Shown here: positions 35,866 to 58,802 of the stretch, piece after piece
How positions within the stretch are numbered: position 1 is the first letter of the stretch
Layout of the letters: each line of letters begins with the position of its first letter
IMG/VR virus record: IMGVR_UViG_3300047160_035999
Location: 5,059 to 69,058 of that record
DNA: 64,000 bases
Origin: a virus
Strand: one strand, 5' to 3'
Made by a program: the position numbers and the translations under genes
The notes under the pieces: generated by a model
Told to the model about the DNA's origin: nothing
Database searches by the model: none
What the model saw: only the letters and a program-made list of their open reading frames with translations

Positions 35866-36129
35866 ATGCGTACCGTTGCCAGCATCGCCCTCGCCTGCCT
35901 TCTCTCCACCTCCGCCCTCGCGCAGCAGCCGACCGACAAGGTCAAGCTCGAGGTGACGCGCGCTGATCTCCAGATCATCGGCCAGGGTCTCATGGAACTG
36001 CCCTACAAGACCTCAGCACCCGTGCTCAATACGTTGCAGCAGCAATTGCTGGCGGCGGATCGTCCTGTCCCGCCGCCGACGCCGACCGAGCCGGAAAAGA
36101 AGCCGGCGGACGAGCCCGCCAAACAATAG
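35866..36129 (+). CDS. Small secreted protein
   Basis: Signal peptide MRTVASIALACLLSTSALA-Q. Confidence 0.6.
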   Translation: MRTVASIALACLLSTSALAQQPTDKVKLEVTRADLQIIGQGLMELPYKTSAPVLNTLQQQLLAADRPVPPPTPTEPEKKPADEPAKQ

Positions 36130-36139
36130 GGTACGTGAA

Positions 36140-38170
36140 ATGCCGAGCGTGTCGAAGGCGCAGCACAACGCCATGGAGGCGGCTGCGCACGGACACTCCA
36201 ACCTCGGCATTCCGAAGAAAGTCGGCGAGGAATTTGTCGCCGCCGATGCGGTGAACGGCAACGCCGCCGGCGTGCTGTTCGTCGCGAATGACGGCGATGT
36301 CCTGCTGATGCGCCGCTCCGCCGATGAGAAGAATTACGGCGGCTGGTGGGGCCTTCCGGGCGGCAAGGCCGAGGACGGCGAGGAGCCGATCGCGGCCGCG
36401 CGCCGCGAAACGCTCGAAGAGACCGGATTCGATTGCGAAGATCGCCTGTTCAAGGCGTTCGACAGCGTCGTGACGCCGGGCAAGATGGCGTTCCATACCT
36501 ATACCTGCGGCGTGGATGAGAAATTCACGCCGAAGATGGAAGACGGCGAGCACACCGGAGCCGCCTGGTTCTCACTCGATGGCCTGCCCGCGACGACACA
36601 CCCGGGAGTGGTCCGCGCGATCAAGGATCGCCTGTCGATAGCCGACGACATGACACCGGAGGACTGGAAGGGGCTGCGCGATGGATTCGCAAAATGGACC
36701 CGCGAGGAAGAGCGCGAGCCGGAGCACCGCGCGTTTGATGCGCGCGAGACGATCGCCTTCGACCGATCCGGATCCGTGCGATCCTATGACGGTGACGGCA
36801 GGCTGCACGTGGCCAGGACCCACATCAGCAAGGCGAACGTCTGCGAATATCTCGGCGGCGAGATTCCGGACTTCGAAAAGCTGGGGCTCAAACCTGACAA
36901 GCTCTACAAGCTCTGGCGTCATCCGGAGGAACTGGAGAGGGCGGCCGACAGCTTCAACAACTTGCCGCTTCTCTCTCGTCATGTCCCCGTCGATGCCTCG
37001 GACCACCGCCCCCACCTGGTGATCGGCTCTTTCGGCACCGATGCCGAGTTTAGGGACGGCTATCTCGACAATTCGATGATCGTCTGGGCCGGGGAAGGCA
37101 TCCGCGACATCGAAGACGAAATCAAGCAGGAATTGTCCAGCGCCTATCGATACCGCGCGGACATGACGCCCGGCCGCACGCCGGAGGGCGAAGAATACGA
37201 CGGCGTCATGCGCGACATCGTCGGCAACCACGTTGCACTCGTCAAGGAAGGCAGAGCCGGGCCAGACGTCCTGGTTGCCGACAGCAAGGAGACACTGAAC
37301 ATGGCGAAAGTCCGCATGACCCGTACCGGTGCCGCTGTCCGTAGCGTCATCGCCCTGCACATCAAACCGCGCCTGGCGCAGGACGCCAGCCTCGATCTGC
37401 GGCCGATCCTGGCGAAGCTCACCTCGAAGAATTTCGCCCAGCAGAAGCCGACCATCCTTGCCGGAATCAACAGGGCCGCCAAGGGCAAGCTTGCGAAGGA
37501 CGCCTCGATCGAGGATGTCGCCACCCTGATCGATGCGCTCGAAAAGGCGCCGATCGCGGAAGGCGACGACGAGCTCGACGTCGGCGATCTCGAGGAAGAG
37601 ACGATGGATTCCGAGGAGCATGGCGGCATCCATGAATTCCTCAAGGGCAAGCTCGGCGAGGACGATTTCCGGAAGGCCTGTGACATGCTCAAGGCCGGCC
37701 CGCACGGTGCCCACGACGAGGAAGACGAAGACGAGGAAGAGAAGAAGCGGAAGGAAAGGGAGCGCGAGGAAAAGATGGCCGGGGATGTCGAGAAGGCGGT
37801 CGCCGAGAAGACCAAGGACATGGTCGACAAGAAGGCGATGGACCAGGCGATCGGCGCCGCGGTCAAGACGGAACGCCAGCGCAACCAGGACATCGCCGAT
37901 GCCCGCGAGGAGGTTCGCCCCTTCGTCGGCGCACTCAAGCAGGCCTTCGACAGCGCCGAGGGGGTGTTCCAGGCCGCTCTTGGCGTCCTCGGTGTCGCCG
38001 ATGCCGACAAGATCACCGGCGTTCCGGCGCTGAAGGCCGTCCTGAAGGCGCAGCGTCCGACCGGCGCGGGCCCCGTCCTACCCAAGCCGGCGATCGCCAC
38101 GGACGCCGCCGTCCAGAAGAGCCTCGCCGAGCGCTTCCCGCACGCGGCCAGGATCGGCATCAGCGCTTAA
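36140..38170 (+). CDS. Nudix hydrolase fused to DUF2213 (capsid maturation protease/scaffold)
   Basis: Nudix box GG.AEDGEEP..AARRE.LEETG; DUF2213 motifs ELSS.Y.Y..D..PG and I.GNHVALV..GRAG.DV; acidic scaffold tail. Confidence 0.85.
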   Translation: MPSVSKAQHNAMEAAAHGHSNLGIPKKVGEEFVAADAVNGNAAGVLFVANDGDVLLMRRSADEKNYGGWWGLPGGKAEDGEEPIAAARRETLEETGFDCEDRLFKAFDSVVTPGKMAFHTYTCGVDEKFTPKMEDGEHTGAAWFSLDGLPATTHPGVVRAIKDRLSIADDMTPEDWKGLRDGFAKWTREEEREPEHRAFDARETIAFDRSGSVRSYDGDGRLHVARTHISKANVCEYLGGEIPDFEKLGLKPDKLYKLWRHPEELERAADSFNNLPLLSRHVPVDASDHRPHLVIGSFGTDAEFRDGYLDNSMIVWAGEGIRDIEDEIKQELSSAYRYRADMTPGRTPEGEEYDGVMRDIVGNHVALVKEGRAGPDVLVADSKETLNMAKVRMTRTGAAVRSVIALHIKPRLAQDASLDLRPILAKLTSKNFAQQKPTILAGINRAAKGKLAKDASIEDVATLIDALEKAPIAEGDDELDVGDLEEETMDSEEHGGIHEFLKGKLGEDDFRKACDMLKAGPHGAHDEEDEDEEEKKRKEREREEKMAGDVEKAVAEKTKDMVDKKAMDQAIGAAVKTERQRNQDIADAREEVRPFVGALKQAFDSAEGVFQAALGVLGVADADKITGVPALKAVLKAQRPTGAGPVLPKPAIATDAAVQKSLAERFPHAARIGISA

Positions 38171-38251
38171 GCCCGCCCCTTCACCTTTGAGCCAACCCAA
38201 GCCGGCGCGCAGATAGCCGCCGGCAACGAACCCTCCTGAAAGGAACATCCG

Positions 38252-39220
38252 ATGACTGGTGGTGGTTTTCAGACGGCGGTCACCGTTCAGCCGGCAATCG
38301 GCGTCGAAGGTGACTTTGCCAGTGCCAATCCGCGCTTTTCCGTGATCGCCGGCGCCGGCGCCTTCGTCTGCGGCGCTGCCGGCGTGCGCGTCGGCCGCTT
38401 TGCCTGGGCGAGCATGGCCGCGGTCGACGACGTCGGCGGTCCCGCGATCGTCAATAACTTCGGCTCCGGGCCCGTGACGGGCTTCGTGCACCGCGAGCAG
38501 CAGGGCCTGATCACCCAGTACCTGCAGAACGCGAGCATGCTGGTACCGGCCGGCTTCGGCATCACGTTGATGAACGGCGGTGACTTCGTCGTGCGCAATG
38601 CCGGATCGGGCCAGGCGCTGATCAATCAGAAGGCCTATGCCATCTTCGCGGACGGCTCGGTGCGCTTCGGCGCGACCGGGTCTCCGGATTCGGGTGGCAC
38701 CTCGACCGCCTCGACGATCGCGGCCGGCACCAGCTCGTTCACCGGCTCCATCACCGGCAACCTCATGACGGTGACCGCGGTCGGCAGCGGCACGCTCTAC
38801 AACGGCACCCAGATCTCCGGCACGAACGTCGCATCCGGCTCGGCCATCGTGTCTCAGGTCCTCCCGCTGCTGGCCGGCGAAGCGCTCCGCGGCATCGGGC
38901 GCTACAATGTGAACATTCCGGAGCAGTCGGCCGCCTCCACCACGATCAGCGGAACCTACGGCCTGCTGACGATCGGCGGTACGGTGGGCGGCACCTTCGG
39001 CATCGGCCAGCCGGTCTCCGGCGGCGGCACGTCGGCTGGTACGGTCATCACCGACCTCGGCACCGGCACCGGCGGCGCCGGAACCTACATCGTCAACAAT
39101 ACCCAGACGGTGGGATCGGGCGCGCTCAACACCGCGCTCGACGTCGAGACCAAGTGGTACGCGATGAGCCCGGGTCTTGCCGGCGAGCTCGTCAAGATCA
39201 GCGATCACCCGCTCGGCTGA
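38252..39220 (+). CDS. Head decoration/cement protein with two inserted beta-rich modules
   Basis: FQT.V..QPA.GVEGDFAS.NP; directly before the major capsid gene. Confidence 0.7.
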   Translation: MTGGGFQTAVTVQPAIGVEGDFASANPRFSVIAGAGAFVCGAAGVRVGRFAWASMAAVDDVGGPAIVNNFGSGPVTGFVHREQQGLITQYLQNASMLVPAGFGITLMNGGDFVVRNAGSGQALINQKAYAIFADGSVRFGATGSPDSGGTSTASTIAAGTSSFTGSITGNLMTVTAVGSGTLYNGTQISGTNVASGSAIVSQVLPLLAGEALRGIGRYNVNIPEQSAASTTISGTYGLLTIGGTVGGTFGIGQPVSGGGTSAGTVITDLGTGTGGAGTYIVNNTQTVGSGALNTALDVETKWYAMSPGLAGELVKISDHPLG

Positions 39221-39293
39221 TAGCTGATCGGCCCTCACCTCCTCCAACCAAGTCGAAACTGAGCCGAGCCCTTCTCGGCCGAAGGAGCATCAT

Positions 39294-40391
39294 ATGTACG
39301 GTTCTCTCCAGGAAGCGATGGATGCATTCGCGCGCGAGAAGGCGTTCTTCGCGGACCGCGGCATCTCCCTGCCCGACACGGTGCGCTGCTACGCGACCGA
39401 CGAGCTGAAGCGCAACTATCTCGCGATGGATGCGCAGCCGGCGCTGCAGACCGATCCAAACACCGGCATCCCGTCGTGGCTGTCGACTTTCATCGATCCG
39501 GATGTCTACAACATCCTGTTCGCGCCGACCGAGGCTGCCGAGATCGTCGGCGAGGAGCGCAAGGGCAACTGGACGACGACGACGGCCATGTTCCCGACCG
39601 TCGAGCATACGGTCGAGGTGTCGACCTATGGCGACTTCAACGAGAACGGCCGCGCCTCGGTGAACACCAACTGGCCCCAGCGCCAGTCGTACAACTTCCA
39701 GGTCATGATGGAGTACGGCGATCGCGAGATCGAGATGGCGGGCCTCGGCCGGGTGAACTGGATCAGCTCGCTCGATGCCGCGGCGGCCGACGGTCTCAAC
39801 CGCTTCCAGAACCTGTCCTACTTTTACGGCGTCTCCGGCCTCCAGTGCTTCGGTCTCTTCAACGATCCGAACCTCGGCGCGCCGCTGTCGCCGGCGCCGA
39901 AGGCCAACGGCGGGACTGCCTGGTTCACGGCGGACGGTCATCCCAACGCGACGGCGAACGAGGTATACAACGACATCGTCGCGCTGTACGAGAACATCGT
40001 GAACAACAACCTCGGCCTCGTGAACAAGAAGTCGCCGATGGTGCTGGGGCTGTCGCCGGGATCCGAAGTCGCCCTCACCTTCACGAACTCGTTCAACGTG
40101 AACGTCGAGGACCTGCTGAAGAAGAACTTCCCGAACCTGCGCATCCAGACCGCCGTCCAATATGGCGCGCAGACGCCGGCCAATCCGCAAGGTGTGCCCG
40201 CCGGCAACTTCATGCAGCTGATCGTGGAGAAGATCAAAGGCCAGAAGACCGCCTATTGCGCCTTCACCGAGAAGCTCAAGGCATTCCCGATCATCCGCGC
40301 CGCCTCCTCGTTCAAGCAGAAGAAGATGGGTGGCACGTTCGGCGCCATCATCCGCATGCCGGTGGCGTTCTCCTCGATGCTCGGCATCTAG
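39294..40391 (+). CDS. Major capsid protein, DUF2184 family
   Basis: KG.W.......P.VE..G..STYGD...G....N.N.P.RQSY; N..YF.GV.GL..FG..NDP. Confidence 0.88.
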   Translation: MYGSLQEAMDAFAREKAFFADRGISLPDTVRCYATDELKRNYLAMDAQPALQTDPNTGIPSWLSTFIDPDVYNILFAPTEAAEIVGEERKGNWTTTTAMFPTVEHTVEVSTYGDFNENGRASVNTNWPQRQSYNFQVMMEYGDREIEMAGLGRVNWISSLDAAAADGLNRFQNLSYFYGVSGLQCFGLFNDPNLGAPLSPAPKANGGTAWFTADGHPNATANEVYNDIVALYENIVNNNLGLVNKKSPMVLGLSPGSEVALTFTNSFNVNVEDLLKKNFPNLRIQTAVQYGAQTPANPQGVPAGNFMQLIVEKIKGQKTAYCAFTEKLKAFPIIRAASSFKQKKMGGTFGAIIRMPVAFSSMLGI

Positions 40392-40439
40392 CGCCGGGCA
40401 TCCCACCTCTTTTCCCAAAACCAGCCAGGAGTTCCTGAA

Positions 40440-40955
40440 ATGTCAGATGCCGCCCCGGCGGGGACCAATGTCGGTTCCCGCGTCGTGACTGTTGCCTGCA
40501 AGCTGCCGCACGGCATCAAGATCAGGGATCACCGGAAGTCCACCACGCACGAACCGGTCATGGGCGGCGGCTCGCGCAAGGTGGAAGTGTTCCGGCCTGT
40601 CGGGCCTACCTACCGCATCAAGGGCCAGAACGTGCCCGAGGCACTTAAGCCGTTTGTCGAAGTTGTCGGAGGGTATGCGATCACGCAGGGCATGCCGGCC
40701 GAGATCTTCGAGCGCTGGATGCGCTGGAACGAGGAAGCGCCCTACGTCAAGAACAACCTGATCTTCGGGTCGGAGAACGCCGATGAGGTCCGCGGCAAGG
40801 CGCGCGAGTTCGCCGCGCTCACGACCGGAATGGAAGCGCTTGACACCAGGATGAAGATGAACGCCGAGGGCCGCATGGAATTCGTCGACCAGCGGATCAA
40901 GGAAGCCGGCCTCAGCCAGATTGTCGATGGCAAGCTCGAGCTCAGCCTGACCTGA
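40440..40955 (+). CDS. Hypothetical virion-region protein
   Basis: VTVACKLPHG motif typical of this phage group; follows the capsid gene. Confidence 0.65.
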   Translation: MSDAAPAGTNVGSRVVTVACKLPHGIKIRDHRKSTTHEPVMGGGSRKVEVFRPVGPTYRIKGQNVPEALKPFVEVVGGYAITQGMPAEIFERWMRWNEEAPYVKNNLIFGSENADEVRGKAREFAALTTGMEALDTRMKMNAEGRMEFVDQRIKEAGLSQIVDGKLELSLT

Positions 40956-40977
40956 ACGTCATCGAGAGGATCGATCC

Positions 40978-41418
40978 ATGGGCGTGGTTGTCCAGTTCAA
41001 CTACGCTCAATGGGCTGCGATCTATCCGGAGTTCAACAACACGGTCAGCGCGCCACAGGCGCAAGAATATTTTCAGCTTGCGACTTCGGTCCATCGCAAC
41101 GACGGCGGCGGACCGGTGAACGACGCCGATCAGCAGCTTGCGTTGCTCAACATGCTGACGGCGCACGTCGCCGCGCTGATGGCGCCGGCGACCGCCGGCG
41201 GCCAGGCAAGCAGCATCGTCGGGCGCATTAGCGGCGCGGCCGAAGGTTCGGTGTCGGTCCAGACGGCCTATTCGAACAACGTCTCCCAGCAGATGGCCTG
41301 GTTCATCCAGACCAAATACGGCGCGATGTATTGGACGGCGACCGCGCCGTTCCGGACCATGCGCTACCTCCCGAACAGGAATCGAGGCGTCGTCGGCCCG
41401 CCGGGCTTCGGCGTCTGA
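40978..41418 (+). CDS. DUF4054 head-tail connector
   Basis: F....W...YPEF; LL..LTAHV..L; GR...A.EGSVSV; W..QT.YG..YW. Confidence 0.85.
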   Translation: MGVVVQFNYAQWAAIYPEFNNTVSAPQAQEYFQLATSVHRNDGGGPVNDADQQLALLNMLTAHVAALMAPATAGGQASSIVGRISGAAEGSVSVQTAYSNNVSQQMAWFIQTKYGAMYWTATAPFRTMRYLPNRNRGVVGPPGFGV

Positions 41419-41435
41419 AGCAGCAGGAGTAGACA

Positions 41436-41945
41436 ATGGACGTCGACGCAATCGGCAAACATGTGAGCGGCCTTTTGGCTTTCAAGAAGCGGGTTGAGGC
41501 GATCATCGACGCCGCCGAGGGCGGCGAGACGACCGCCGCGGAAGCACTGAGCGGCCGGATCGACGAGCTTAGCAGGAAGGTCGGCGACCTCGACGTGCGC
41601 GTGACGTCAAAGCTCGAGCAGGTCCTTGGTGACATCGAGGAGAAGCTGGCCGGTGTTGCCCTTATGCTCACCTGGTTCGAGGAGAATCGCGCGGCGCTCG
41701 ATGTGGTCCTGTCGATGGGCGACGATCTCGCCACGACGATCAGCGACGGCGCCGCGCAGGAGGAAAAGCCGGCCGTCGTGACCATCACCGCCCAGGCGCC
41801 GGAAGGCTCGGCGGAGGCCTCGGTCAACGAGACCGTCAATCCCCCGCTGCCAGAGGGCGTGAGCGCCACGACGGAGCCTGTCGCAGTACCGGACGCAGTA
41901 TCCGTGACCACACCGGCCCCCGAGGCCGAAACGCCGGCGATCTGA
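41436..41945 (+). CDS. Hypothetical acidic/coiled-coil protein
   Basis: RBS AGGAG; TGATG-coupled to the next gene. Confidence 0.6.
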   Translation: MDVDAIGKHVSGLLAFKKRVEAIIDAAEGGETTAAEALSGRIDELSRKVGDLDVRVTSKLEQVLGDIEEKLAGVALMLTWFEENRAALDVVLSMGDDLATTISDGAAQEEKPAVVTITAQAPEGSAEASVNETVNPPLPEGVSATTEPVAVPDAVSVTTPAPEAETPAI

Positions 41946-42388
41946 TGGCCTCGATCCGCGGCGGCGACCGCCTGGCCATGGCCCTGAGCAAGATTGCGCA
42001 GGGCCTGTCTAACGGCGGCATGCTGCGGGTCGGATTCCTGGAAGGCGCCACGGGCCCGGACGGCGATCCGATCGCGCTTCGCGCGGCCATGAACGAGTTC
42101 GGAACGCGGCACATCCCGGCCCGCCCCTTCTTCCGCAATATGGTCGAGGAGAAGAGCCCGGAGTGGCCGGAGGGCATCGCCACCCAGCTGAAGGCCAACG
42201 ATTTCGACGCCGGCCGCGCGCTCGAGGTCACCGGCCACGCCATCAAGAGCCAGATCCAGCAGTCCATCAAGGACACCAATTCCCCGCCGCTAGCGCCGTC
42301 CACGGTGAAGCGGAAAGGCTTCGACAAGCCGCTGATCGAAACCGGCGACATGATCAACGCCGTCGATTTCGAGGTCAAATCCGACTAG
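41945..42388 (+). CDS. Neck/tail completion protein
   Basis: LRVGFL; EFGT..IPARPFFR; PPLA.ST..RKG..KPLI.TG.M. Confidence 0.8.
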   Translation: MASIRGGDRLAMALSKIAQGLSNGGMLRVGFLEGATGPDGDPIALRAAMNEFGTRHIPARPFFRNMVEEKSPEWPEGIATQLKANDFDAGRALEVTGHAIKSQIQQSIKDTNSPPLAPSTVKRKGFDKPLIETGDMINAVDFEVKSD

Positions 42389-42407
42389 ACCAAAAGGACC
42401 CCTGCCC

Positions 42408-42929
42408 ATGCGATTCAAACCCAAAGCGTCCGTCATCGCGGCCGCCCTGCTTGCCTCGTCGGTTGCGGCCCTTGCGGCGAATACCACCTTCTTCACGTCG
42501 ATCGGCGATCTGGTTTTCCCCTTCAAGGCGCCCACCGCAAGCGCTCCCGGCACGATCGACAACATGACGATCGGCGCGACCACGCCCGAGGCCGGAAGCT
42601 TCAGCCAGGTCCAGATCGACCAGGGCACCAAGACAGCGACCGCCTCCTCCGGTGCCGCGACGCTCAACAAGGACGCCGGCGTCATCACGTCGGAATCGCT
42701 GAGCACCGCCGCAGGCGCGACCTATACGCTCACCCTCACCGATTCCTCGATCGCTGCGGCCGACCAGGTCATGGCAAGCGTCGCGCTGGGCACGGCGACG
42801 ACCGGAACGCCGGCGATCACGACGGTGAAACCTGCTGCCGGCTCGGTGGTGATCGTGGTGCAGAACATCCATGCCTCCGCGGCGCTCAACGGCACCATCA
42901 AGATCGCGTTCGTCGTTTTCAAGAACTGA
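42408..42929 (+). CDS. Fibre-like protein with N-terminal signal peptide
   Basis: MRFKPKASVIAAALLASSVAALA-A; IDNMTIGATTPEAGSF motif; Thr/Ala/Ser-rich beta domain. Confidence 0.6.
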   Translation: MRFKPKASVIAAALLASSVAALAANTTFFTSIGDLVFPFKAPTASAPGTIDNMTIGATTPEAGSFSQVQIDQGTKTATASSGAATLNKDAGVITSESLSTAAGATYTLTLTDSSIAAADQVMASVALGTATTGTPAITTVKPAAGSVVIVVQNIHASAALNGTIKIAFVVFKN

Positions 42930-42932
42930 ACC

Positions 42933-43310
42933 ATGAACCTGCGCGGGATTGCGAACGGGGTGACCAGCTCGGTCAACCCGAACGTCCCGCTCGTGGTTCA
43001 GATCTCAACCGGATACACGACGGCCGCGAACGGCCAGCGTTCGCCGAGCTACGCCGCTCCGGTGACCGTGCAGGGACAGGTCCAGGCGCTATCGAACAAA
43101 GAGATCCAGCACCTCGACGCCCTCAACATCCAGGATGCGCGCAACGCCATCTACGTCAACGGCCAGCTGAACGGCTTGGTGCGCGAAGAGAACATGGGCG
43201 GAGACCTGATCACCGATCCTGCGGGCAATGTCTGGCTTGTCGCGATCGTCCTCGAAAACTGGCCGGACTGGTGCAAGGTCGCGGTGGTCCGCCAGAACCC
43301 GCAGAGCTGA
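42933..43310 (+). CDS. Head-tail adaptor/stopper
   Basis: MNL..IA.......NP; QVQAL...LQH.D.LN.Q; W.V..V.E.WPDW. Confidence 0.75.
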   Translation: MNLRGIANGVTSSVNPNVPLVVQISTGYTTAANGQRSPSYAAPVTVQGQVQALSNKEIQHLDALNIQDARNAIYVNGQLNGLVREENMGGDLITDPAGNVWLVAIVLENWPDWCKVAVVRQNPQS

Positions 43311-43323
43311 ATGGAGACGACGA

Positions 43324-43668
43324 ATGCTGCGAGGACTTGCGCTTGCCCTCATCGCCGCCTCGATCCCCATGCAGGCCTGCGCCGATAGCGGCATCCGGCG
43401 CGTGGCGTGCGGCTATCAGCAGATCACCTCGCTGTCCTCGGCGCAGAAGCTGACGGTGCCGACCACATGTGGCGGACCGCCGACGCTCGCCGTCATCACC
43501 GCCGAGGCCCAGGCAGTCCGATATCGAGACGACGGAACGTCGCCGACTGCCACCGTCGGGATGCCGCTCGCGACCGGGGTCGCGCTGTCATATGAAGGCA
43601 CGCTGTCCGCCATCCAGTTCATCGAGCAGACTGCCAGCGCCAAACTGAACGTGCTGTTCTACCGGTAG
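43324..43668 (+). CDS. Hypothetical protein with signal peptide
   Basis: MLRGLALALIAASIPMQACA-D; beta-rich mature part. Confidence 0.6.
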   Translation: MLRGLALALIAASIPMQACADSGIRRVACGYQQITSLSSAQKLTVPTTCGGPPTLAVITAEAQAVRYRDDGTSPTATVGMPLATGVALSYEGTLSAIQFIEQTASAKLNVLFYR

Positions 43669-43680
43669 AGCGCGCAGCAA

Positions 43681-44244
43681 ATGCCCTTGTCGGTGTCGCC
43701 GTCGCAATCCGACATCCAGACGGCGCTGCGCGCCTTCCTGCTCTCGATCCTCCCCAGCGGCACCGAAGTGATCGAAGGCCTCGACAATCGGGTGCCGGAG
43801 CCCAAGAAGGCCAATTTCGTCACGATGACGGTTTTGCGCCGGCCGCGCCTCGCGACCAATCTCGACACCTTGAACGATACCGGCGACCAGACCGCGGTGA
43901 CACAATCCACCGAGGTCGTCTTTCAGCTCGACGTCCACAGCGACAACCTGCTCACCGCATCCGACAACGCGCAGCTTATCGCGACCCTGTTCCGCGACGA
44001 TTACGCGACGGACTTCTTCGACGACTATCCCGGCATTACTCCGCTCTATGCCGATGATCCGCGGCTCATTCCGTTCGTCAACGCCGAGAACCAATACGAG
44101 CCTCGATATGCCGTTGAGGCACGATTGCAGGCAGACCAGGTCGTCACCGTGCCGGCGCAGTCGGCCGACAGCCTCTCGCTCGACATCACCAACGTCGAGA
44201 CGGACCCTGCGTCATGGCCGAACTCCACCGTAACCGTACCTTGA
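43681..44244 (+). CDS. Neck/tail terminator protein
   Basis: VI.G.DNRV.EP...FV.M; QLDVH; PLYA.DP...PF.N.E.QYE.R. Confidence 0.75.
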   Translation: MPLSVSPSQSDIQTALRAFLLSILPSGTEVIEGLDNRVPEPKKANFVTMTVLRRPRLATNLDTLNDTGDQTAVTQSTEVVFQLDVHSDNLLTASDNAQLIATLFRDDYATDFFDDYPGITPLYADDPRLIPFVNAENQYEPRYAVEARLQADQVVTVPAQSADSLSLDITNVETDPASWPNSTVTVP

Positions 44245-44269
44245 TGCCATCGATCCGAGGTCACCGCCT

Positions 44270-49542: not shown

Positions 49543-50435
49543 TGGCGCTCGTCAGCCGGAAGCTTCGCGCCACGATCACGCTGGCCCCGATCGAGGGGCA
49601 GGCGCAGACGTTCGCAAATAGCGGCGGGGCCGACACCGTCATCATCGAGAACCTGCGGATGTCGGCCGAGGTGCTGCACGCCGGCGGACCGTCGGACGGC
49701 ACGCTCGATCTGACCATCTACGGCCTGTCGCTGTCGACCATCAACCGGTTATCGACGCTCGGCATGCAGATCAACCTGGTGCCGAAGAATGCCATCGTCC
49801 TCGAGGCTGGCGACGATCAATCCGGCATGTCGACCGTCTTCACCGGATACATCCTGGCGGCCTTCGGCGACTTCAACGCCTCGCCAGATGTTTCCTTCCA
49901 CATCTCCGCTCATACGCTTGCCCCTCAAGCGGTGATCCCGGCGCAGGCATCGAGCTTCCAGGGCTCGGCCGATATCGCCACGATCATGAGCGGCCTTGCC
50001 ACGCAGCTCGGCCTGAAGTTCGAGAATTCCGGCGTCACCGGTACGCTCTCGAACGCATATTTCTCCGGATCGTTCAAGACGCAGGCGCAGGCCTGCGTGG
50101 ACGCGGCCGGCATCGCCTGGAATCACGGCGAAGGCGGCACGCTCGCGATCTGGCCGAAGAATGGCTCGCGCGGCGGCCTGGTGCCGCTGGTCTCGCCTCA
50201 GACCGGGATGAAGGGGTATCCGACCTATACGGCCTACGGCATCATGGTCGAGACGCTCTACAACCCGTCGATCGGCTTCGGCGGAAAGGTTCAGGTCCAG
50301 AGCAGCCTGCCCGCGGCCTGCGGCGAATGGACCGTCTACAGCCTCGGCCACCAGCTCGAGGCGGAGATGCCGGACGGCCGGTGGTTCTCGATTCTGCTCT
50401 GCTACAACCCGAAATTCCCAACGCCGGTGGCCTGA
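49542..50435 (+). CDS. Baseplate hub protein
   Basis: L.IYGL....N.L; LEAGD; TGM.GYP; V..L.NP.I..G. Confidence 0.8.
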   Translation: MALVSRKLRATITLAPIEGQAQTFANSGGADTVIIENLRMSAEVLHAGGPSDGTLDLTIYGLSLSTINRLSTLGMQINLVPKNAIVLEAGDDQSGMSTVFTGYILAAFGDFNASPDVSFHISAHTLAPQAVIPAQASSFQGSADIATIMSGLATQLGLKFENSGVTGTLSNAYFSGSFKTQAQACVDAAGIAWNHGEGGTLAIWPKNGSRGGLVPLVSPQTGMKGYPTYTAYGIMVETLYNPSIGFGGKVQVQSSLPAACGEWTVYSLGHQLEAEMPDGRWFSILLCYNPKFPTPVA

Positions 50436-50438
50436 CGC

Positions 50439-51146
50439 ATGGCGGATGACGCGACGAAGGGATATGGGCAACAGGACCCGTCCGATTCCGCCGGCGCCTT
50501 CAATCCGTTCGCCTTCCAGATCGCACAGGCGCTTGCGCGCATCTCGACGAACAAGATCGTGAAGGTGATGGCCGTCGACACCGACAAGAAGACGGTCGAC
50601 GTCCAGATCGCAGTCAACCAGCTCGACGGTCAGCTCAATTCGACACCGCACGGGACGATCTACGGCATCCCCTATGTGTGGGCCATGGGCGGCACGAACG
50701 CTTTCATGATCGATCCGGCCGTGGGTGACATGGGGATGATGTCGGTGTGCGACCGCGACATCTCCGCGGTCAAGAGTACTCAGGATATTGGCAATCCGGG
50801 ATCCTTGCGGAAATTCAGCCCCTCAGACGGAATCTACCTGTTCGGCATTCCGGGCCTCAACGGGACCGCTCCCGTGCAGTGGATCAAGTGGACGAGCGAC
50901 GGCATCGACATCACGGCCAACAACGGCAACCGCCTGACGTCGGATGCCTCAGGCTGGAAATTCACCGGCGTCGTGAATTTCGCGAACGACGTGCAGCTGG
51001 GTGGCCAGATCCTCGGGGGTGCCGGCGGCGAGCTCGCGGTCGACATCAAGACGACCGGCGATGTCGTTGCCGGCACGATCAGCCTGAAGGGCCATCACCA
51101 CACCGCACAAGGCGCAACGGCGCCGACGACGCCGGCGCAAGCATGA
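50439..51146 (+). CDS. Baseplate spike (Gp138-like)
   Basis: VDV..AVNQ.DG; P.VGD.G....CDRDIS.VK; terminal ISLKGHHH (HxH metal tip). Confidence 0.82.
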   Translation: MADDATKGYGQQDPSDSAGAFNPFAFQIAQALARISTNKIVKVMAVDTDKKTVDVQIAVNQLDGQLNSTPHGTIYGIPYVWAMGGTNAFMIDPAVGDMGMMSVCDRDISAVKSTQDIGNPGSLRKFSPSDGIYLFGIPGLNGTAPVQWIKWTSDGIDITANNGNRLTSDASGWKFTGVVNFANDVQLGGQILGGAGGELAVDIKTTGDVVAGTISLKGHHHTAQGATAPTTPAQA

Positions 51147-51508
51147 AGACGATGTTCCTCAACCCACAGACGTGGGACCTCGCCATCGACGCTTCTGGAA
51201 ACATCGCTGCCGCACAAGATCCCTATGCGCTCGCGCAGAACGCCGCGAGCGCCATCCGGCTGTTCCTCGGCGAGCAATGGTACAACACGACGCTGGGCGT
51301 GCCGTACCTCACGGCGAACGGGCGCAGCCAGATCCTCGCCAGACCGGTCAACGTGCCCCTGATGAAGGCAACGCTGGCGGCTGTGGCTGAAACGGTGACG
51401 GGTGTTTCAACGGCGCAGGTGTTCATCACGTCTATCGCGGACCGCAACGTCCGCGGCCAGGTGCAGGTGACGGACGAGAACGGGACGACAACGGCGGCGC
51501 TGTTCTGA
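51143..51508 (+). CDS. Baseplate wedge protein (gp25/gp46-like)
   Basis: WDL..DA.GNIA; AQ..ASA.RLF.GE.WYNT..GVPY. Confidence 0.75.
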   Translation: MKTMFLNPQTWDLAIDASGNIAAAQDPYALAQNAASAIRLFLGEQWYNTTLGVPYLTANGRSQILARPVNVPLMKATLAAVAETVTGVSTAQVFITSIADRNVRGQVQVTDENGTTTAALF

Positions 51509-51509
51509 C

Positions 51510-52925
51510 ATGACAACGAATGTCCCCCCGATCGTATTCACCCCGCAAGGGCCGGTCGCGCCCACCGAGGCGCAGATCCTCGCCGGCGTGCAGGCCGACT
51601 ATGATGCGGCATTCGACGGCGGCCTCGATCCCTCATTGTCAACGCCGCAGGGGCAACTGGCGACCAGCACGTCCGCGATCGTCGGGAATGGGAACGACTC
51701 GTTCCTGTTCATGGCGAACATGTTCAATCCGGACTTCGCCCAGGATCGGTGGCAAGACGCCCTTGCTGCCATCTACTTTCTCCAGCGAAAACCGTCCGAA
51801 CCGACAGTCGTCCAAGCCGTCTGCACCGGCGGTCAGGGCGTACAGATCCCCGCCGGCGCGTTGGCCAAAGCCGTCGATGGCAATCTCTATAGCTGCACCG
51901 ATGGCGGCGTGATCGACAATACCGGAAGCATCACGCTGACGTTCGCCTGCAACGCCGTCGGCCCGATCCCCTGCCCGGCGAATACGCTGACCAAGATCGC
52001 GCGCGCCATTCCGGGCTGGGATAGCATCAACAATCCGGCCGACGGCACGCTCGGAAATAACACCGAGACCCGCGCCGAATTCGAGACGCGGCGAAAGGAA
52101 TCCGTCGCCAAGAACTCTCGCGGCACGATCCAGGCGGTCCAGGGCGAGGTGCTCGATGTTTCCGGCGTGCTAGATGCTTGGTCGGTACAGAACGACTCAA
52201 GCTCGCCGGCGGTGATCTCGGGCGTGACGCTCGCGAAAAACTCGATCTATGTCTCCGCCGTCGGAGGAGCCGACCAGGACGTCGCCAATGCGATCTGGTC
52301 GAAGAAGTCGCCGGGCTGTGGCTACAACGGCAACACGACGGTCACCGTCGTCGACGACAGCTCCGGATATTCGCCGCCGCTGCCATCGTATCAGGTGACG
52401 TTCGAGCGGCCGACCTCGCTCGCCATCTTGTTCGCGGTCGTGATCGCCAACAGCCTGCAGGTGCCCTCCGATGTCATCGCGCAGGTGCAGGCCGCCATCA
52501 TCGGAGCCTTTGCAGGGTCGGATGGAGGTGCGCGCGCCCGCATCGGATCGACGATCTATGCGAGCCGGTACTATCCGCCGATCGCGGCACTGGGATCGTG
52601 GGCCAACATCATCTCGGTTCTGGTCGGTTCCAACAACAATGCCGGCGCCGTATTCACCGGATCGATCTCGGGAACGGCGTTGTCCGTCTCGGCGACCGCA
52701 TCGGGCGCAGTCGCCATCGGGCAGACGATATCCGACGCGGCCGGTCTGATCACACCGGGCACGACGATCCTCAGTGGTAGCGGGACAAGCTGGACGATCA
52801 ATAACCCGCAGACGGTCGGAAGCCGCACGATCACCGGAGCGACGGCGAACCTGACCCTGACGATGGTTCACGGGGATCAAACGCCCACCATCAACGCCAA
52901 CAACATCGCCGTCGCGCTGACATGA
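51510..52925 (+). CDS. Baseplate J-like protein with an inserted beta module
   Basis: L.TPQGQLA; QDALA.IYF..R; G...ET...FE.RR; KKSPGC..NG. Confidence 0.85.
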   Translation: MTTNVPPIVFTPQGPVAPTEAQILAGVQADYDAAFDGGLDPSLSTPQGQLATSTSAIVGNGNDSFLFMANMFNPDFAQDRWQDALAAIYFLQRKPSEPTVVQAVCTGGQGVQIPAGALAKAVDGNLYSCTDGGVIDNTGSITLTFACNAVGPIPCPANTLTKIARAIPGWDSINNPADGTLGNNTETRAEFETRRKESVAKNSRGTIQAVQGEVLDVSGVLDAWSVQNDSSSPAVISGVTLAKNSIYVSAVGGADQDVANAIWSKKSPGCGYNGNTTVTVVDDSSGYSPPLPSYQVTFERPTSLAILFAVVIANSLQVPSDVIAQVQAAIIGAFAGSDGGARARIGSTIYASRYYPPIAALGSWANIISVLVGSNNNAGAVFTGSISGTALSVSATASGAVAIGQTISDAAGLITPGTTILSGSGTSWTINNPQTVGSRTITGATANLTLTMVHGDQTPTINANNIAVALT

Positions 52926-53581
52926 GCGGCCCGGACATCAACAGGCCGAGGCCGGGATCGAACGGCATCGGCCAATTCATCATCGGCGTATCGCCGATCG
53001 GGACGATCATCCCGTTCGATTACTGGGACACGATCGCAAGCCAATTCGCCAACAGCGACACGATCACGACGCTCATTGGGAATATGGACGAGTACCTCGA
53101 CAAGACGGCCGCCCTCGACAACTTCTACGACTTCGTCTTCAACGTCGCGACCGCGCAGGGCTTTGGCCTCGATGACTGGGGCAAGATCGTCGTGGTGAGC
53201 CGCGTCCTCGACGTACCGACCGGGGGTGACTACTTCGGATACAAGGAAGCCCTCCCCGGCTCAAATCCGTTCAACACGCAGTCGTTCTTCTCGGGCCAGC
53301 AGCTGACGAACAACTTCATCCTGTCCGACAGCGCCTATCGCGTTCTGATCTATGCGAAGGCTCTCGCCAATATCTGCGACGGGTCGATCCCGGCGATGAA
53401 CCAGATCCTGCTGCGGCTCTTTCCGGGCCGCGGCAACTGCTTCGTGAAGGACGGCCTCGACATGTCGATGGCCTATCACTTCGACTTCGCGCTGACGCCG
53501 GTCGAGCTTGCGATCGTCGAGCAGTCCGGAGCCCTGCCCCATCCGACCGGAGTGTCGGTCGCCGTGACCGTGCTCGTCTAG
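52922..53581 (+). CDS. DUF2612 baseplate protein
   Basis: QFANS..I..L; TA.GFGLD.WG.IV.VSR; L.D.AYR.LI..KA.ANI; LP.P.GV. Confidence 0.85.
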   Translation: MSGPDINRPRPGSNGIGQFIIGVSPIGTIIPFDYWDTIASQFANSDTITTLIGNMDEYLDKTAALDNFYDFVFNVATAQGFGLDDWGKIVVVSRVLDVPTGGDYFGYKEALPGSNPFNTQSFFSGQQLTNNFILSDSAYRVLIYAKALANICDGSIPAMNQILLRLFPGRGNCFVKDGLDMSMAYHFDFALTPVELAIVEQSGALPHPTGVSVAVTVLV

Positions 53582-53593
53582 GAAAGCCAAACA

Positions 53594-54658
53594 ATGCAGG
53601 GCTCGCAAGTTCCGCTCCGGATGCAGGTGATCTGGGGCAAGAATGCCGGCGGAGCTTATATCCGGGTCGTTCCGGTCGCATCGCAAATCGGCACCCAGGA
53701 TGGCGCGGCGTCCTTCACCGACGGATTTCCGCCCGACAACTTCACGAACGTGTCCGCTGGCGGCGTGCCTCCGTTCGGCCAAGACATGAACGGAATCCTG
53801 AGCGTCGTCACCGCATGGCTGCAGTGGGCTCAGGCGGGAGGCCCCAACGTCTACGATGCGGCGTTTGCAACGGCGGTGGGCGGCTATCCCTTCGGAAGCA
53901 TCCTCAACTCGGCCTACACGGCCGGCGCCATGTGGGCGAGCTTCCAGGACAACAACCTGACGAATCCGGATGATCCGTCGACGTCCGCGGGCTGGGTGCG
54001 TGTCGGCCTTCAACCAGGTACGCCCGTTCCGCTTCTCACGGCCAACACCAACAGCCAGTTCATTCTCGCCAACGGGACGACTGTCGGAAACACGGGCTCC
54101 GGAGCGGCGCAAGCCGATCGCGGCTACGTGTACGTCTACAAGGCAATCTGGGATCAATTTTCGAATACCCAGTGCCCGATCTTCGATTCGTCCGGAAACC
54201 CGTCGACCCGCGGCGCGAATGCCGTCGCTGATTTCCTCGCGCTGAAGCGCCTAACGACCCCGAACATGAAGGGGCTCGGTGTCATCGGTGTGGACACGAT
54301 GGCAGGATCGGCCTCGACGTTCCTCAACGGCGTGCCGATCACAATCGGCAACACCACGACTCCCGGTTCGATTCTCGGCGAGAACCTGCATGCTCTGACC
54401 TCGAGTGAGAATGGAGCACACACTCACGTCAACACGCTGACCGACCCGCAGCACAATCACTCCTACCTCATTGCGCCCGACAGCGGCGCCCGCGTTTCCG
54501 GAACGGGAAACATCTATTTGGGCGGCCCGCAATCGAGCGGTGCGACGACGGGGAGCTCGAGCACCAATATCACCATCAACAATGCGTCGTCAGGAAGCGG
54601 CACCGGCCACAACACCGTTGAGCGCAACATGGCTGTCTACTGGGGGCTGAAAACATGA
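53594..54658 (+). CDS. Tail fibre protein (baseplate-proximal)
   Basis: GA.S..DGFPP......GG.PP.G.D.NGIL; F.TA.GGYP.G.IL; C-terminal HxH collar-like motifs. Confidence 0.8.
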   Translation: MQGSQVPLRMQVIWGKNAGGAYIRVVPVASQIGTQDGAASFTDGFPPDNFTNVSAGGVPPFGQDMNGILSVVTAWLQWAQAGGPNVYDAAFATAVGGYPFGSILNSAYTAGAMWASFQDNNLTNPDDPSTSAGWVRVGLQPGTPVPLLTANTNSQFILANGTTVGNTGSGAAQADRGYVYVYKAIWDQFSNTQCPIFDSSGNPSTRGANAVADFLALKRLTTPNMKGLGVIGVDTMAGSASTFLNGVPITIGNTTTPGSILGENLHALTSSENGAHTHVNTLTDPQHNHSYLIAPDSGARVSGTGNIYLGGPQSSGATTGSSSTNITINNASSGSGTGHNTVERNMAVYWGLKT

Positions 54659-55299
54659 CGACCCGCATTGCCAGGTCGGCCATACGAGATCCTGATGCAT
54701 TTGCGGTGGAAGTGGCTGCCTTCGCGCATGAGCACCGAAACTGGACCGCGCATATGGAGCGCGTCAAGCACGACGAAGATCGCGGCGTCACAGGAATCGA
54801 GCGGCATGCGCCCTATCCTCGCCCGCTCCACCATCAGCTGGTGATGGACGCCGTCAACGAGCATGGCCAGCCGGACTATGAAATATTCGACGACGGACCC
54901 TCTGCTTCGCAGGTGCTGCAGTCGAAAAAGACCGGCCTGCTGGCAGAGGTCAGCTGCGCCGAGGCCGCGGCGATCGCGGCCCTCGTGCCAGCGGGCAAGC
55001 GCCGCCTGCTCAACATGCGCGCGCAGAAAATCCGGGAAGACGATCGCGATCGTTACGCCAAGGCCGCCGAGGCGCGAAGCGGGCTTCTGACAAAACTGAT
55101 GATCACTTCGATCGATCCGGCTGATCTCGCCGCGGACGTCGAGGCGATGCGCCCCGCTGCCGACACGGCGTTCCTGAAAGAGCAGGACGAGATCAAGCGC
55201 AAGATCGATGCGATCGAGCAGAGCGCTGCGCAAGCCATGCACGACATCGAGGACCTCACGATCGACACCATCGATCGCTGGACGATGCCCGAATTCTGA
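54655..55299 (+). CDS. Tail fibre-associated protein (chaperone-like)
   Basis: ATGA-coupled after the fibre gene; helical. Confidence 0.55.
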
Positions 55300-55307
55300 A
55301 GGACACC

Positions 55308-58300
55308 ATGACCCTGTTGAAGTCGACAGCACTCGCCGTCGCGGCGTGGGCGCTCGCGTGCCCGGCCGTGGCCATGGCGCAGAGCACCCCTAACCTGACC
55401 TATGGACAGGTGCCGACCGCAGGTCAGTGGAATTCCTACTTTGCCGCAAAGCAGGACGTGCTGGGATACGTTCCCTTCAACGCCGCCGGCGGCACGTTCA
55501 CCGGGCGCGTGGTGATGGCGGCCGCCGGTGCATCGGTTGCGGGCCTCAACATCACGCCCGGCTCGACGCCCTCCAGCCCGGCACCTGGCGACCTGTGGGT
55601 GACCGACGCGGGGTTCTTCGGCTATGCCAACGGCGTTACGTCGCCGTTTGGACTGACACCGCCGAAGCCGATCTCGGGGTTCAGCTATCAGTATTCCGCG
55701 GCCGACAACGGATACATCGTCCAGCGCTCCAATGGCGGCCTTTCGATGGTCGACATCTTGCGCGGCGACACCATCCTACCGAGCGGCGCCGTCTTCACGG
55801 TGAAGAACGACGACGTCGCCGGCCAGCTTGCGCTTTCGATATCGAACGGCGTTGTCACCGGATCCATTTCCGGAACGACGTTTACCGCCGCGTCGGGGCT
55901 GGTCGGCACCCTTGCGCCCGGGCAAACCATCGGAGGGGCAGGCTCCGGTGTCCTCGCCGGCACCACGATCGTATCCCAGCTGACCGGAACGCCGGGCGGC
56001 CTCGGGACCTATCAGGTGTCGCTCAGCCAGACGGTTGCCTCGACGAGCCTCACATTCGGCGCAACGCTGAACGGTGATCTGAACAACTATGTTCCGATCG
56101 GTCCTGGTCAGAGCGCGAGTTTCGCGTCCGACGGCGTGAACTATCGCTCGATCGGCGCTCCGCTGCGCTCCAAGTCGATCTCGACGCCATTGGGCAGCGT
56201 CACGGGATCGATCTCGGGAACGACGCTCACGGCTTCGTCTGCCCTTGCAGGCACCCTGTCACCCGGTCAGATGATCGGCAATGCCGGGTCGACTATTGCG
56301 CTGGGCACGAAGATCGTGTCGCAGCTGACCGGCACCACCGGCGGGACCGGTACGTATCAGGTCAGCATCAGCCAGACGGTTGGCTCCGGCACCATCTACT
56401 TCGGCTTCCCGACGACGCTCTTTTTCGCCGCGAGCGGCGGGTTGGACGTAAACTCGGGCGTGGACCCGTCTGTTCCGCTCGCGACGCCGCAAGGCGCGAT
56501 GAACACGCTCTCTCAGCGCTATGATCTCAGCGCCGGTTTCTTCGTCGTGCAGGCCTGCCAGACCGCCGGATCAACCTGCAACCCGCCGAGCTCGCCGCAA
56601 ACCTTCTCGGGATTCCTGGTCCGGGGCCGTCCTCTCGGCGTCGGCAACCCGCTCGGCGTGAATCCCTTCTATCACGCGATCCTCTTTCGCGGGGACCCTG
56701 CCAACACGGCGAATTACACGATCAGCGCGCCGGGCACCTGCGTGCAGGCAATTCAGTCGACGCTCATGGTCGACGGTTTCACGCTCACCTGTGGCGGCGA
56801 CGGCATCAGTGCGACGACCAATTCCATCGTCGGCGTCGGCAACATCGCCTACGGTGCCATGACTGGCAATGATATGTTCGCCGGCGCGTCGTCGTACATC
56901 CATTGGGACAACAACAGCACGAAAACCGGCGCTGCCTCGTGTCACCAGCTGGCTGCGACCGGAAGCACGATTGCTGCGAACGGTTCTGGACTTACCGAGA
57001 CCATGAGCAGTGCCGTCTGGGGCACCGGCAACTATTGCGTGAAGGAGGGAGGCACCGTCGACAATACCGGAGGCACTCAGTCCGGAACGGCGACCGGGCC
57101 AAAGTTCAACATCGGCATCGGCGGCGGATACATCGCGATTGGAACTTCTGGCGTCGATCCGAACACGCTGCTGGTCGGCAACTCGAACGGCACTTACGGT
57201 GCGACCGGGCCGGCGAACAATGTAGCCGGCCCCGGCACCTTCAACGGCCTCACGGTCTCCGGGTCGTTCAGTGCTCCCGGCCTCGTCGGCAATGCGAGCC
57301 TGACGAACGCGTCGATGACCATCAACGGCACGACCTGCACGCTGGGATCGAGCTGCAGCCCGTCCGCCGCCGCAACCTCGATCGCCAACGGCAGCACGCT
57401 GGTGACCGGCGGCACCGGGGGTCGTGTCCTGATGGACAACAGCGGCACGCTCGGCGAGTATGCGATCAGCGGCACCGGCAATGTCGCGATGACAACCAAC
57501 CCGGTGTTCACGACGCCGAACCTCGGCACGCCGTCGGCCGTCACCCTCACAAACGGCACAGGCCTGCCCACCACCGGCCTGACCGGCACGCTCCAGGCCG
57601 CGCAATTTCCGGCGCTCACCGGCGACATCACCACGACGGCTGGTGCTCTCGGCACCACGCTCGCGACCGTCAACTCGAATGTCGGCACGTTCGGCTCGGC
57701 GACCCAGTCGGGGACCTTCACCGTCAACGCCAAGGGCCTGATCACGGCAGCGGCCAATGTCACCATCACGCCGGCGGTCGGAAGCCTCACCGGCGCCGGC
57801 TCGGGCGTTCTGACCGCGCTCGGCATTGCCGTGGGCTCCGCCGGCGGGCCCGTCACCAATGGCGGCGCGCTCGGTTCGCCGTCGTCGATCGGCATGCTCC
57901 CCGCCTTCACGCTCGGCGGCACGATCTCCGGCGGCGGCAACCAGATCAACAACGTCATCATCGGCAACTCGACGCCGCTTGCCGGATCGTTCACAACAGC
58001 ATCGGCCAGCACCTCGATCACGAGCCCGATCCACTACGGCGGATCGAGCGCCGGTTCGACGCTTACGTTGCAGTCGACCTCGAGCGGCGCGCCGTCGGGC
58101 GACAAGATCCTTTTCAACGCGGGCGGCTCGACGCGCGGAACGATGCTGTCCGGCGGCAACCTCGGTTTTGGGACGGAGACCAACCCGCAGTTCCCCCTCG
58201 TTGTGAGCGCCAACACGACGACCGGCATCAACGTGTCGGGCTCCGGAAACATGGCGGTCTTCGTCAACGCCGACGGCCAACCGAGCAACTTCGCCGTCGT

Positions 58301-58802
58301 CACCTTCGCGAACAACTCAGGCAACAATCCAGGATTCATCACGTACCATGCGGAGGGCACGGCCCTCTCGCCGACGCAGTCAAAGGCGAACGACGTCACC
58401 GGATTCTTCGCGTCCAAGGCCTACAATAGCAGCCCGGGCTGGAACGGGACGCCGCAGGGCCTCGCGATCTTCGCCGGGCAGGACCAGACGTCGAGCGCGC
58501 AGGGCGGGTACGCCAAGATGCTGCTGACGCCGAACGGCTCGACCACGCGAGGCACGGTCATGCGCTGGCATGGCAGCGGCGGCGTATCGATCGTCAGCGA
58601 GAACGACCCCGGCGCCGGAGCGATGCTCCTGAAGCCGCAGACGTTCGCCAGCCTGACGACCTGCAGCGGCACGATCGAGGGCGCGATGGCGTCGGTGACG
58701 GACAGCACCGTCAACACCTGGGGCTCGACGATCGCGGGCTCGAGCACCAACCACGTCATGGCCTATTGCGACGGGACTAACTGGACGGTCGCAGCGAAGT
58801 AG
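55308..58802 (+). CDS. Large fibre/adhesin-like protein with N-terminal signal peptide
   Basis: [25 protein letters not shown]; Gly/Thr/Ser-rich; two beta modules, a beta-helix-like middle and fibre-shaft motifs. Confidence 0.75.

Follow-up and report, generated by a model that had tools for sequence, protein, structure and literature searches.

Why should proteins encoded among the head, neck, and tail genes of a tailed phage begin with what look like secretion signals, when the textbook view of tailed-phage assembly is that it is purely cytoplasmic? The question is raised by a 64,000-nucleotide (nt) stretch of viral DNA (positions 5,059 to 69,058 of IMG/VR record IMGVR_UViG_3300047160_035999; the whole stretch is called the window here), in which four genes, named SP1 to SP4 below, encode N-termini of the signal-peptide type. 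We consider it highly probable, from the sequence features described below, that these presequences export fibre-type late proteins through the Sec pathway. The parent record is a provirus of 69.4 kb that is rated 100% complete, and the window comprises almost all of it, with a G+C content of 62-66% that is even along its whole length. A single late operon on the + strand runs from ∼31.3 kb to 58.8 kb. It contains head genes (terminase, portal, a Mu-F-like head morphogenesis protein, a NUDIX-DUF2213 head protease, an XM1-gp53-like decoration protein, and the major capsid protein), neck and tail genes (neck proteins, a DUF3383/E217-type sheath, tube, chaperone, and tape measure), baseplate genes (hub, a gp25-like initiator, a Baseplate_J-like wedge, and a Wedge1-like protein) and, at its end, a tail fibre, a 214-amino-acid (aa) protein, and the 1164-aa SP4. 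The phage is a soil prophage with a contractile tail, and its core genes have their cultured relatives among the temperate myoviruses of Burkholderia, Acetobacter, and Pseudomonas. The four signal-bearing genes are listed here, with an arrow at the presequence boundary.

35866..36129, + strand: SP1, 87 aa; presequence MRTVASIALACLLSTSALA↓QQ; between the head-morphogenesis and protease genes
42408..42929, + strand: SP2, a 173-aa fibrelet; ...SSVAALA↓ANTTFF, followed by the IDNMTIGATTPEAGSF motif and a C-terminal knob domain; phrog_18251
43324..43668, + strand: SP3, 114 aa; ...PMQACA↓DSG, with a mature part of 94 aa that contains a Cys pair; between the phrog_1912 and phrog_1876 genes, 5' of the sheath gene
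55308..58802, + strand: SP4, 1164 aa; presequence at residues 1-24 (...AVAMA↓QSTPNL), conserved N-domain at 25-121, a ∼60-aa module at 182-255 and again at 299-363, a Cys-paired and probably beta-helical region at ∼400-690, a Gly/Thr/Ser fibre region, a motif at 880-895, and a C-terminal domain with Cys1119/Cys1154

The original prediction had placed signal peptides with AxA sites at 35866, 42408, 43324, and 55308, and all four open reading frames (ORFs) were confirmed at these starts. Each start is preceded by a Shine-Dalgarno-like AGGA or GGAG at a distance of 6-13 nt, and the gaps to the neighbouring genes are just 3-19 nt. The late genes were screened with a home-made signal rule that asks for a net positive n-region, an uncharged stretch of 12-32 aa with a Kyte-Doolittle mean of at least 2.0 over an 8-residue window, small residues at -3 and -1, and no Pro at +1. 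The rule picks 4 of 30 late genes, exactly the four named. On windows taken from inside these proteins it fires at a rate of 0.6%, and on random sequences of matched composition at 1.2%, so that ∼0.3 chance matches would be expected among the 30. The hallmarks of Sec export and signal peptidase I (SPase I) cleavage, namely a basic n-region, an uncharged h-region, and small residues at -3/-1, are present in all four. Neither a twin-arginine motif nor a lipobox was found in any of the four window proteins, which assigns the presequences to the Sec/SPase I type. A twin-arginine (Tat) signal can be eliminated for the window proteins because RR is missing, as can a lipoprotein reading of SP1 and SP3, because the Cys lies outside a lipobox and is missing in many homologues.

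The motif that SP2 and SP4 had been said to share is present in both, as IDNMTIGATTPEAGSF at residues 50-65 of the former and in a related form at residues 880-895 of the latter, and its general form, IGxxTPxAGxF, is common to more than 40 viral loci. The two ∼60-aa module copies of SP4 match the baseplate wedge protein, and the proposed occurrence of the same module in the sheath and head decoration proteins also holds, since phrog_21413 matches both. The fibre-like nature ascribed to the whole set does not extend to SP1, an 87-aa product with a single homologue (L132), which likewise carries a presequence (...SAIA↓QT). SP1, whose mature part is small and probably helical, matches no Pfam or PHROG family and is perhaps a small periplasmic protein unconnected with the others. 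Pfam searches, even at E up to 10, gave no match for any of the four proteins, and the PHROGs that were matched are unknown-function families only.

Presequences among the homologues

SP4, the final gene of the tail operon, has the family in which the presequence can be examined most closely. The mature N-domain alone was searched against 1.84 billion cluster representatives, which gave 1751 matches, of which 865 reach an E of 1e-10 or lower. From the best matches we drew 141 signal-bearing representatives, and in these the presequence boundary was set by homology, independently of the signal rule. Across the IMG/VR loci and metagenome proteins, the presequences are unrelated hydrophobic extensions, each of which ends in AxA and is followed by a conserved QS(S/T) start. 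Their length is 18-33 aa (mode 22), and a K or R occurs within the first 8 residues in 140/141. In 112 of the 141 the homology boundary coincides exactly with AxA↓Q, and Gln occupies +1 in 133, with RR in 5 and a lipobox-like string in 3. Homologues in related prophages had been named among the proteins to be checked for signals, and across the homologues the presequence is conserved as a feature, while its letters are not. Seven further representatives of the family, together with locus L015, start with M[AG][GS]xPNL at the boundary and have neither the presequence nor the Gln.

Such an N-terminus could also arise if the proteins were not exported at all and the presequences were start-codon artefacts, uncleaved inner-membrane assembly tethers, or a by-product of Ala/Leu-rich coding at high G+C. 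A G+C content of 63-65% does favour Ala/Leu-rich peptides, and in window SP4 a Met precedes the site by two residues and lines up with the starts of the signal-less forms. However, a Met near the boundary is present in only 6 of the 141 representatives, which rules out a general second start in the SP4 family, and the genes begin right after the preceding stop codon. The ∼1% background of the signal rule, the coincidence of AxA↓Q with the homology boundary, and the nearly invariant basic n-region also speak against this explanation, as does the restriction of even cysteine counts to signal-bearing forms that is described in the next section. We regard it as improbable.

In the two smaller families, too, the presequence is present or absent as a unit. 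SP2 lies between the Neck1/tail-completion gene and the phrog_1912 gene, and its related entries in the Atlas are viral fibre-tip-like clusters. Homologues with a presequence are found in L076, L080-083, L110, L126, and L132, and those of L072 and L073 begin with MSGNNTFFTEIGD, which is exactly the predicted mature end of window SP2. In other viral contigs, at L080:371-1357, L081:4259-5208, and L082:5845-6794, small SP2-like proteins are encoded in tandem pairs, and every one of them has a presequence and 2-4 cysteines. In the SP3 family, AxA↓D is found in 11 loci and ∼10 members begin directly at the domain; in the alignment the presequence is an N-terminal insertion relative to the signal-less homologues. 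The Cys pair of SP3 goes with the presequence in one subclade, and the signal-less forms have zero or one Cys. The mature part of SP3 is predicted to be a small jelly-roll (cupin-like) sandwich (predicted local distance difference test, pLDDT, of 88). Its best structural match, the receptor-binding domain of the PM2 P1 spike at a Z of 8.1, is level with many cupins and is thus not informative. Among GenBank phages, SP2 and SP3 gave marginal matches only, to uncultured Manatee Spring phages.

No presequence was found among ∼190 homologues of core proteins (portal, capsid, decoration, neck, sheath, tube, tape measure, hub, and wedge) in related loci. The families that bear signals, SP2 (a neck-region fibrelet), SP3 (a small jelly-roll), and SP4 (a second fibre), are peripheral. 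Signals also occur on relatives of the first fibre of the window.

53594..54658, + strand: canonical tail fibre, phrog_12796; no signal; N-terminal 140 aa conserved, C-terminus variable; directly 3' of the wedge genes

The homologue of this fibre in L017 has a 20-codon extension, MKKFVLGLLILAFSAISASA, that starts one base after the preceding stop codon and ends at the Met aligned with the window fibre start. Among ∼120 relatives of the N-terminal 140 residues, 11 (∼10%) have a similar extension (...AFG↓LAD(S/T)SAPTKIQIP), and the anchor region of these 11 is 54-62% identical to that of the window fibre. Canonical fibres of the phrog_12796 type with a signal-like extension of 17-23 aa are encoded at L017:11001-12407, L147:10001-11269, and L148:10001-10909; in L147 and L148 the signal-bearing fibre is the sole gene between Phage_Wedge1 and the lysis genes. 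It is difficult to see why an exported protein should retain a baseplate-anchor domain if it no longer came into contact with the baseplate. We note that signal-like N-termini are also found in a phage that has been induced and imaged, Acetobacter phage phiAO1 (L145, LC644971; alphaproteobacterial host). Its tail module ends with an 821-aa protein that begins with a signal-like MSPLFKTRFLLSLCSGVVMLAGA... (L145:11345-13807), and the 159-aa protein that follows (L145:13868-14344) has an internal-Met presequence. Neither protein is related to the SP4 N-domain.

Cysteine parity of the mature proteins

Mature cysteines are even in number in 131 of the 141 signal-bearing SP4 relatives (mean 6.5), and among the non-zero counts the bias toward even numbers has a binomial p of ∼1e-25. 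Canonical fibres without a signal served as the control and divide into 52 with even and 56 with odd counts (Fisher p 8e-16 for signal-bearing SP4 relatives vs signal-less canonical fibres). The 11 canonical-fibre relatives with a presequence have even counts in nine cases and odd counts in two. In window SP4, ten mature cysteines stand in close pairs (417/424, 478/495, 545/577, 677/683, and 1119/1154). Even counts point to an oxidising compartment, of which they would be the signature, and to oxidative folding with disulfide bonds. Paired cysteines and a Gln that is lost together with the presequence fit real export, cleavage, and disulfide formation, and a spurious N-terminus would predict neither.

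With these data the inference behind the original prediction can be divided. Its central part, that real export signals are carried by fibre-type late proteins, is upheld by the conservation among homologues, by the signal-less variants that start at the boundary, and by the even cysteine counts. Its rationale, that export would keep receptor-binding or lytic domains away from the progeny, found no support, and the data point to oxidative folding instead. From these features we infer export, cleavage, and disulfide formation in the phage at hand and, with the most reserve, attachment to the virion after the membrane has opened.

Proposed assembly of exported fibres and its alternatives

If fibre-type proteins are exported, where would they meet the particle? 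The structure of the SP4 family suggests an answer. The N-domain (∼95 aa, QSxPNL...QWNSYF) is the only conserved part, at 50-70% identity, and is followed by C-termini that differ and that carry Pect-lyase, Beta_helix, Peptidase_S74, T7-tail-fibre, or other domains. A conserved N-domain with swapped C-termini is the hallmark of a receptor-binding protein that is anchored at its N-terminus. The gene is also held in a fixed place: the order wedge, Wedge1, fibre, an optional small gene, and SP4-type gene is kept in ten viral loci of IMG/VR, of which two have SP4-type genes in tandem, and in 2 Logan contigs. Signal-bearing P0168, which has a weak Peptidase_S74 match, and signal-less P0237 occupy an equal slot just before the lysis genes, in the order Sheath_initiator, Baseplate_J, Wedge1, fibre, X, lysis. 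The conservation of anchor-type N-domains, which extends to the signal-bearing canonical fibre, favours docking onto particles, and the canonical fibre of the window is likely the docking partner of SP4 or the context for it.

The N-domain has further features of its own. Its second half (window positions 55461-55652, SP4 residues 52-115; ...AGGTxTGxL...PGxxPxxPxxGDLW...) is a repeat unit and corresponds to residues 28-91 of the mature N-domain used as query. Long fibres without a signal, P0121 (1599 aa) among them, contain 5-13 copies of it, which leaves only the first ∼30 mature residues as the part specific to the SP4 family. Searches of the PDB with single sequences and with an N-domain profile returned no match. 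The model of the N-domain (pLDDT 77) is extended and probably needs a trimer, and it found no structural match, the best Z being 2.4. In L013 (9878-14211) and L016 (7469-11961) two SP4-type genes stand in tandem, both with presequences and with different C-termini, which suggests exchangeable or multiple exported fibres in one phage. A search of sequencing runs found the family in soil metagenome DNA runs, in small shares, and no RNA run was among those listed.

The timing of expression was judged from the operon. No promoter- or terminator-like site beside the signal genes on the + strand rose above chance, although such a screen has little power for a host outside the enteric bacteria. Tight packing, uniform G+C, and the lack of an own promoter argue for late expression, minutes before lysis. 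The narrow gaps, a G+C like that of the neighbours, and the lack of an own promoter or terminator are not the traits of a moron. The variable presence that is typical of morons is seen in part, as the nearest cultured relative, Burkholderia phage PE067, is without SP4 and two near-complete relatives are without SP3. The operon is followed by a lysis cassette, whose first gene bears on how the membrane would open.

59934..60827, + strand: soluble endolysin with a C-terminal PG_binding_1 domain; no signal and no signal-arrest-release (SAR) segment

A soluble endolysin implies that a hole-forming (large-hole) holin is to be expected. Holin holes are big enough for cytoplasm and periplasm to mix, and fibreless T4 particles take up fibres in vitro, as complementation experiments with T4 have established. 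The whole cassette (59934-62978) further contains a 65-aa ORF with a hydrophobic start (60827-61024), a Lipase_3 protein, a holin-like stretch with two transmembrane segments, a 193-aa product from 61994 whose N-terminus resembles a signal (...LLPQEAMA↓QGG), and a coiled-coil protein that has a transmembrane segment at its C-terminus (62586-62978). No classical Rz/Rz1 pair was seen in this region.

Taken together, these observations suggested to us an assembly in two compartments. The four presequences would act as Sec signal peptides cut by SPase I, and during late expression the peripheral fibre-type proteins SP2, SP3, and SP4 would cross the inner membrane. In the periplasm the signal would be removed, which in SP4 would expose an N-terminal Gln, and the proteins would fold with disulfide bonds, while heads, tails, and the baseplate with its first fibre would be built in the cytoplasm. 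The two pools would be kept apart until the inner membrane is opened by the holin or the cell lyses, and the conserved N-terminal anchor domains would then dock the exported fibres on finished particles. As a complete chain that includes this docking, we put the scheme forward tentatively. Its extension to a large group of uncultured phages of soil Proteobacteria, in which a cytoplasmic core and periplasmic, cleaved, disulfide-bonded host-recognition fibres would be joined after holin opening, is a more tentative proposal still.

Several points weigh against docking on the particle. The SP4 N-domain family is absent from 50,697 GenBank phage records, where the full protein shares just a 39-aa stretch with a Bradyrhizobium phage. 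PE067 has one fibre, which is signal-less, so that the second fibre is an add-on and could be a non-virion accessory. Signal-less SP3 homologues occur in the head modules of unrelated phages. The signal status of SP3 and SP4 agrees in all nine viral records that have both proteins (eight with both signals, one, G001, with neither), but this co-variation is only suggestive, as it depends on the one record without both signals, for which chance would be ∼1 in 9. Lastly, docking after lysis must work within a few seconds or at high dilution.

The strongest competitor is that the proteins are free exported late products that never enter the particle and that bind, mask, or degrade the receptor or surface polysaccharide of the host, first from the periplasm and then in the medium once the cell has lysed. 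By destroying the receptor or serving as decoys, they would keep progeny off debris and block superinfection. Every argument for export fits this explanation equally. SP4 stands at the end of the tail operon beside a conversion gene of the O-antigen acetylase type, the cultured relative PE067 does without it, and relatives carry pectate-lyase and beta-helix domains, which are typical of depolymerases. Exported trimeric glycanases that resemble tailspikes are also known in bacteria (WceF, PMC7949094). However, a free enzyme would have no need of a conserved N-terminal anchor, and yet across hundreds of clusters with exchanged C-termini nothing but the anchor is conserved. Signals are gained by the canonical baseplate fibre as well, with its anchor domain kept, and signal-less variants sit in the same gene slot. 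On balance we consider the free form rather unlikely, though a serious competitor to docking on the particle.

A further alternative, also raised in the original prediction, is that the proteins are cell-surface adhesins, displayed on the host envelope through the N-domain, which alter adhesion or the surface of the lysogen or induced cell. The architecture is that of the MAT fibres, with a signal peptide, a conserved beta-rich N-domain, and variable tips, some of them with S74 (as in P0168) (PMC10769870). Late expression, which follows from the position in the late operon without an own promoter or terminator and from a G+C like that of the neighbours, speaks against a role on the lysogen surface, as the proteins would be made shortly before lysis. 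The genes are always in the fibre slot of phage tail modules, and no route for crossing the outer membrane is encoded nearby. We regard an adhesin role as very improbable.

Surrounding genes and known systems

The genes that adjoin the two fibres are given here for orientation; the Pfam names of the baseplate-periphery genes are taken over from relatives.

51143-53581, + strand: baseplate periphery, with a gp25-like sheath initiator (51143-51508), a Baseplate_J-like wedge (51510-52925), and a Wedge1-like protein (52922-53581); no signals
54655..55299, + strand: 214-aa protein between both fibre genes; no family, no signal; alongside SP4-type genes in some relatives (L005, L006)

Among relatives, the slot of the 214-aa gene can hold a 157-aa gene instead, and P0057 is a read-through fusion. 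Downstream, an O-antigen acetylase/acyltransferase-type gene (58777-59922, - strand; phrog_3333) is convergent with the SP4 gene and overlaps its last 26 nt; PE067 has an acetyltransferase in the equivalent place after its single fibre. The head protease gene (36140-38170) encodes a NUDIX hydrolase domain (residues 41-153) fused to a DUF2213-type head maturation protease. Next to the immunity region, a 102-aa ORF (12782-13090, - strand) without a Pfam family has the presequence MKRAAAALVLFALAAPASA↓QPADD and four mature cysteines, and it may be an exported protein that is expressed in the lysogen.

The pattern as it appears in sequence, in which outer fibre-type proteins are signal-bearing with paired cysteines and core proteins are not, is spread over this prophage and hundreds of uncultured relatives. 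The proviruses of L004 and L008 stem from isolate genomes, and proteins of Bradyrhizobium, Peteryoungia, and Sphingomonas are among the matches to SP4 and to the canonical fibre. If docking after export is correct, tailed-phage morphogenesis would include a step that depends on Sec and Dsb and that lies outside the textbook pathway. Were fibres exported routinely, host Sec, signal peptidase, and Dsb would be phage dependency factors, and fibres would attach during or after lysis, with kinetics particular to that step. Pipelines that exclude virion proteins by their signal peptides would miss receptor-binding proteins, and such fibres would have to be expressed in the periplasm for recombinant production or host-range engineering. 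Should the proteins prove to be free and not virion-bound, they would still constitute a new class of phage accessory, as a widespread family of late proteins that are exported and fibre-like and whose conserved N-domain lacks a Pfam entry.

The contractile-tailed phages have two-part or branched fibres, exemplified by gpH with gpI/gpJ of P2 and by the adaptor tailspikes of CBA120 and G7C. The order wedge, Wedge1, fibre, second fibre resembles these systems, as do the conserved N-terminal anchors and exchangeable distal domains. Unlike SP4, the two-part and branched fibres known to us all lack signal peptides and are assembled in the cytoplasm. Lom and Bor of lambda and Llp of T5 are precedents for exported products of phage genes that lie within or beside the tail genes. 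Unlike the proteins described here, they are lipoproteins or small outer-membrane proteins that are expressed independently, are unrelated to fibres, and have no anchor domain.

The literature yielded no report of signal peptides on tailed-phage tail fibres, in a search that was thin on subscription journals, and a 2026 preprint voices the usual assumption, namely that the P22 tailspike is signal-less since it has no membrane to cross. Phage-encoded SPase I sites that expose an N-terminal Gln have a parallel in Porphyromonas gingivalis phages, where Q-rule signal peptides on capsid proteins, spanins, and unknown genes are read as modifiers of the host surface (Matrishin et al. 2023, PMC10367356); tail fibres are not mentioned there, and the host belongs to another phylum. 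WceF of Pantoea stewartii is likewise a trimeric beta-helix protein of the tailspike type that acts outside the cytoplasm, but it has a Tat signal, is encoded in a chromosomal exopolysaccharide cluster, and lacks a fibre anchor domain (PMC7949094). Judged by published architecture only, the nearest likeness in print is the MAT fibre family of Bdellovibrio bacteriovorus (Caulton et al. 2024, PMC10769870), in which a signal peptide adjoins a conserved beta-rich N-domain and the tips are swapped, some carrying Peptidase_S74. The MAT genes are chromosomal genes of a predator that displays the fibres on its own surface, whereas SP4-type genes stand in the fibre slot of a phage tail operon; both groups are akin in kind to phage tail fibres.

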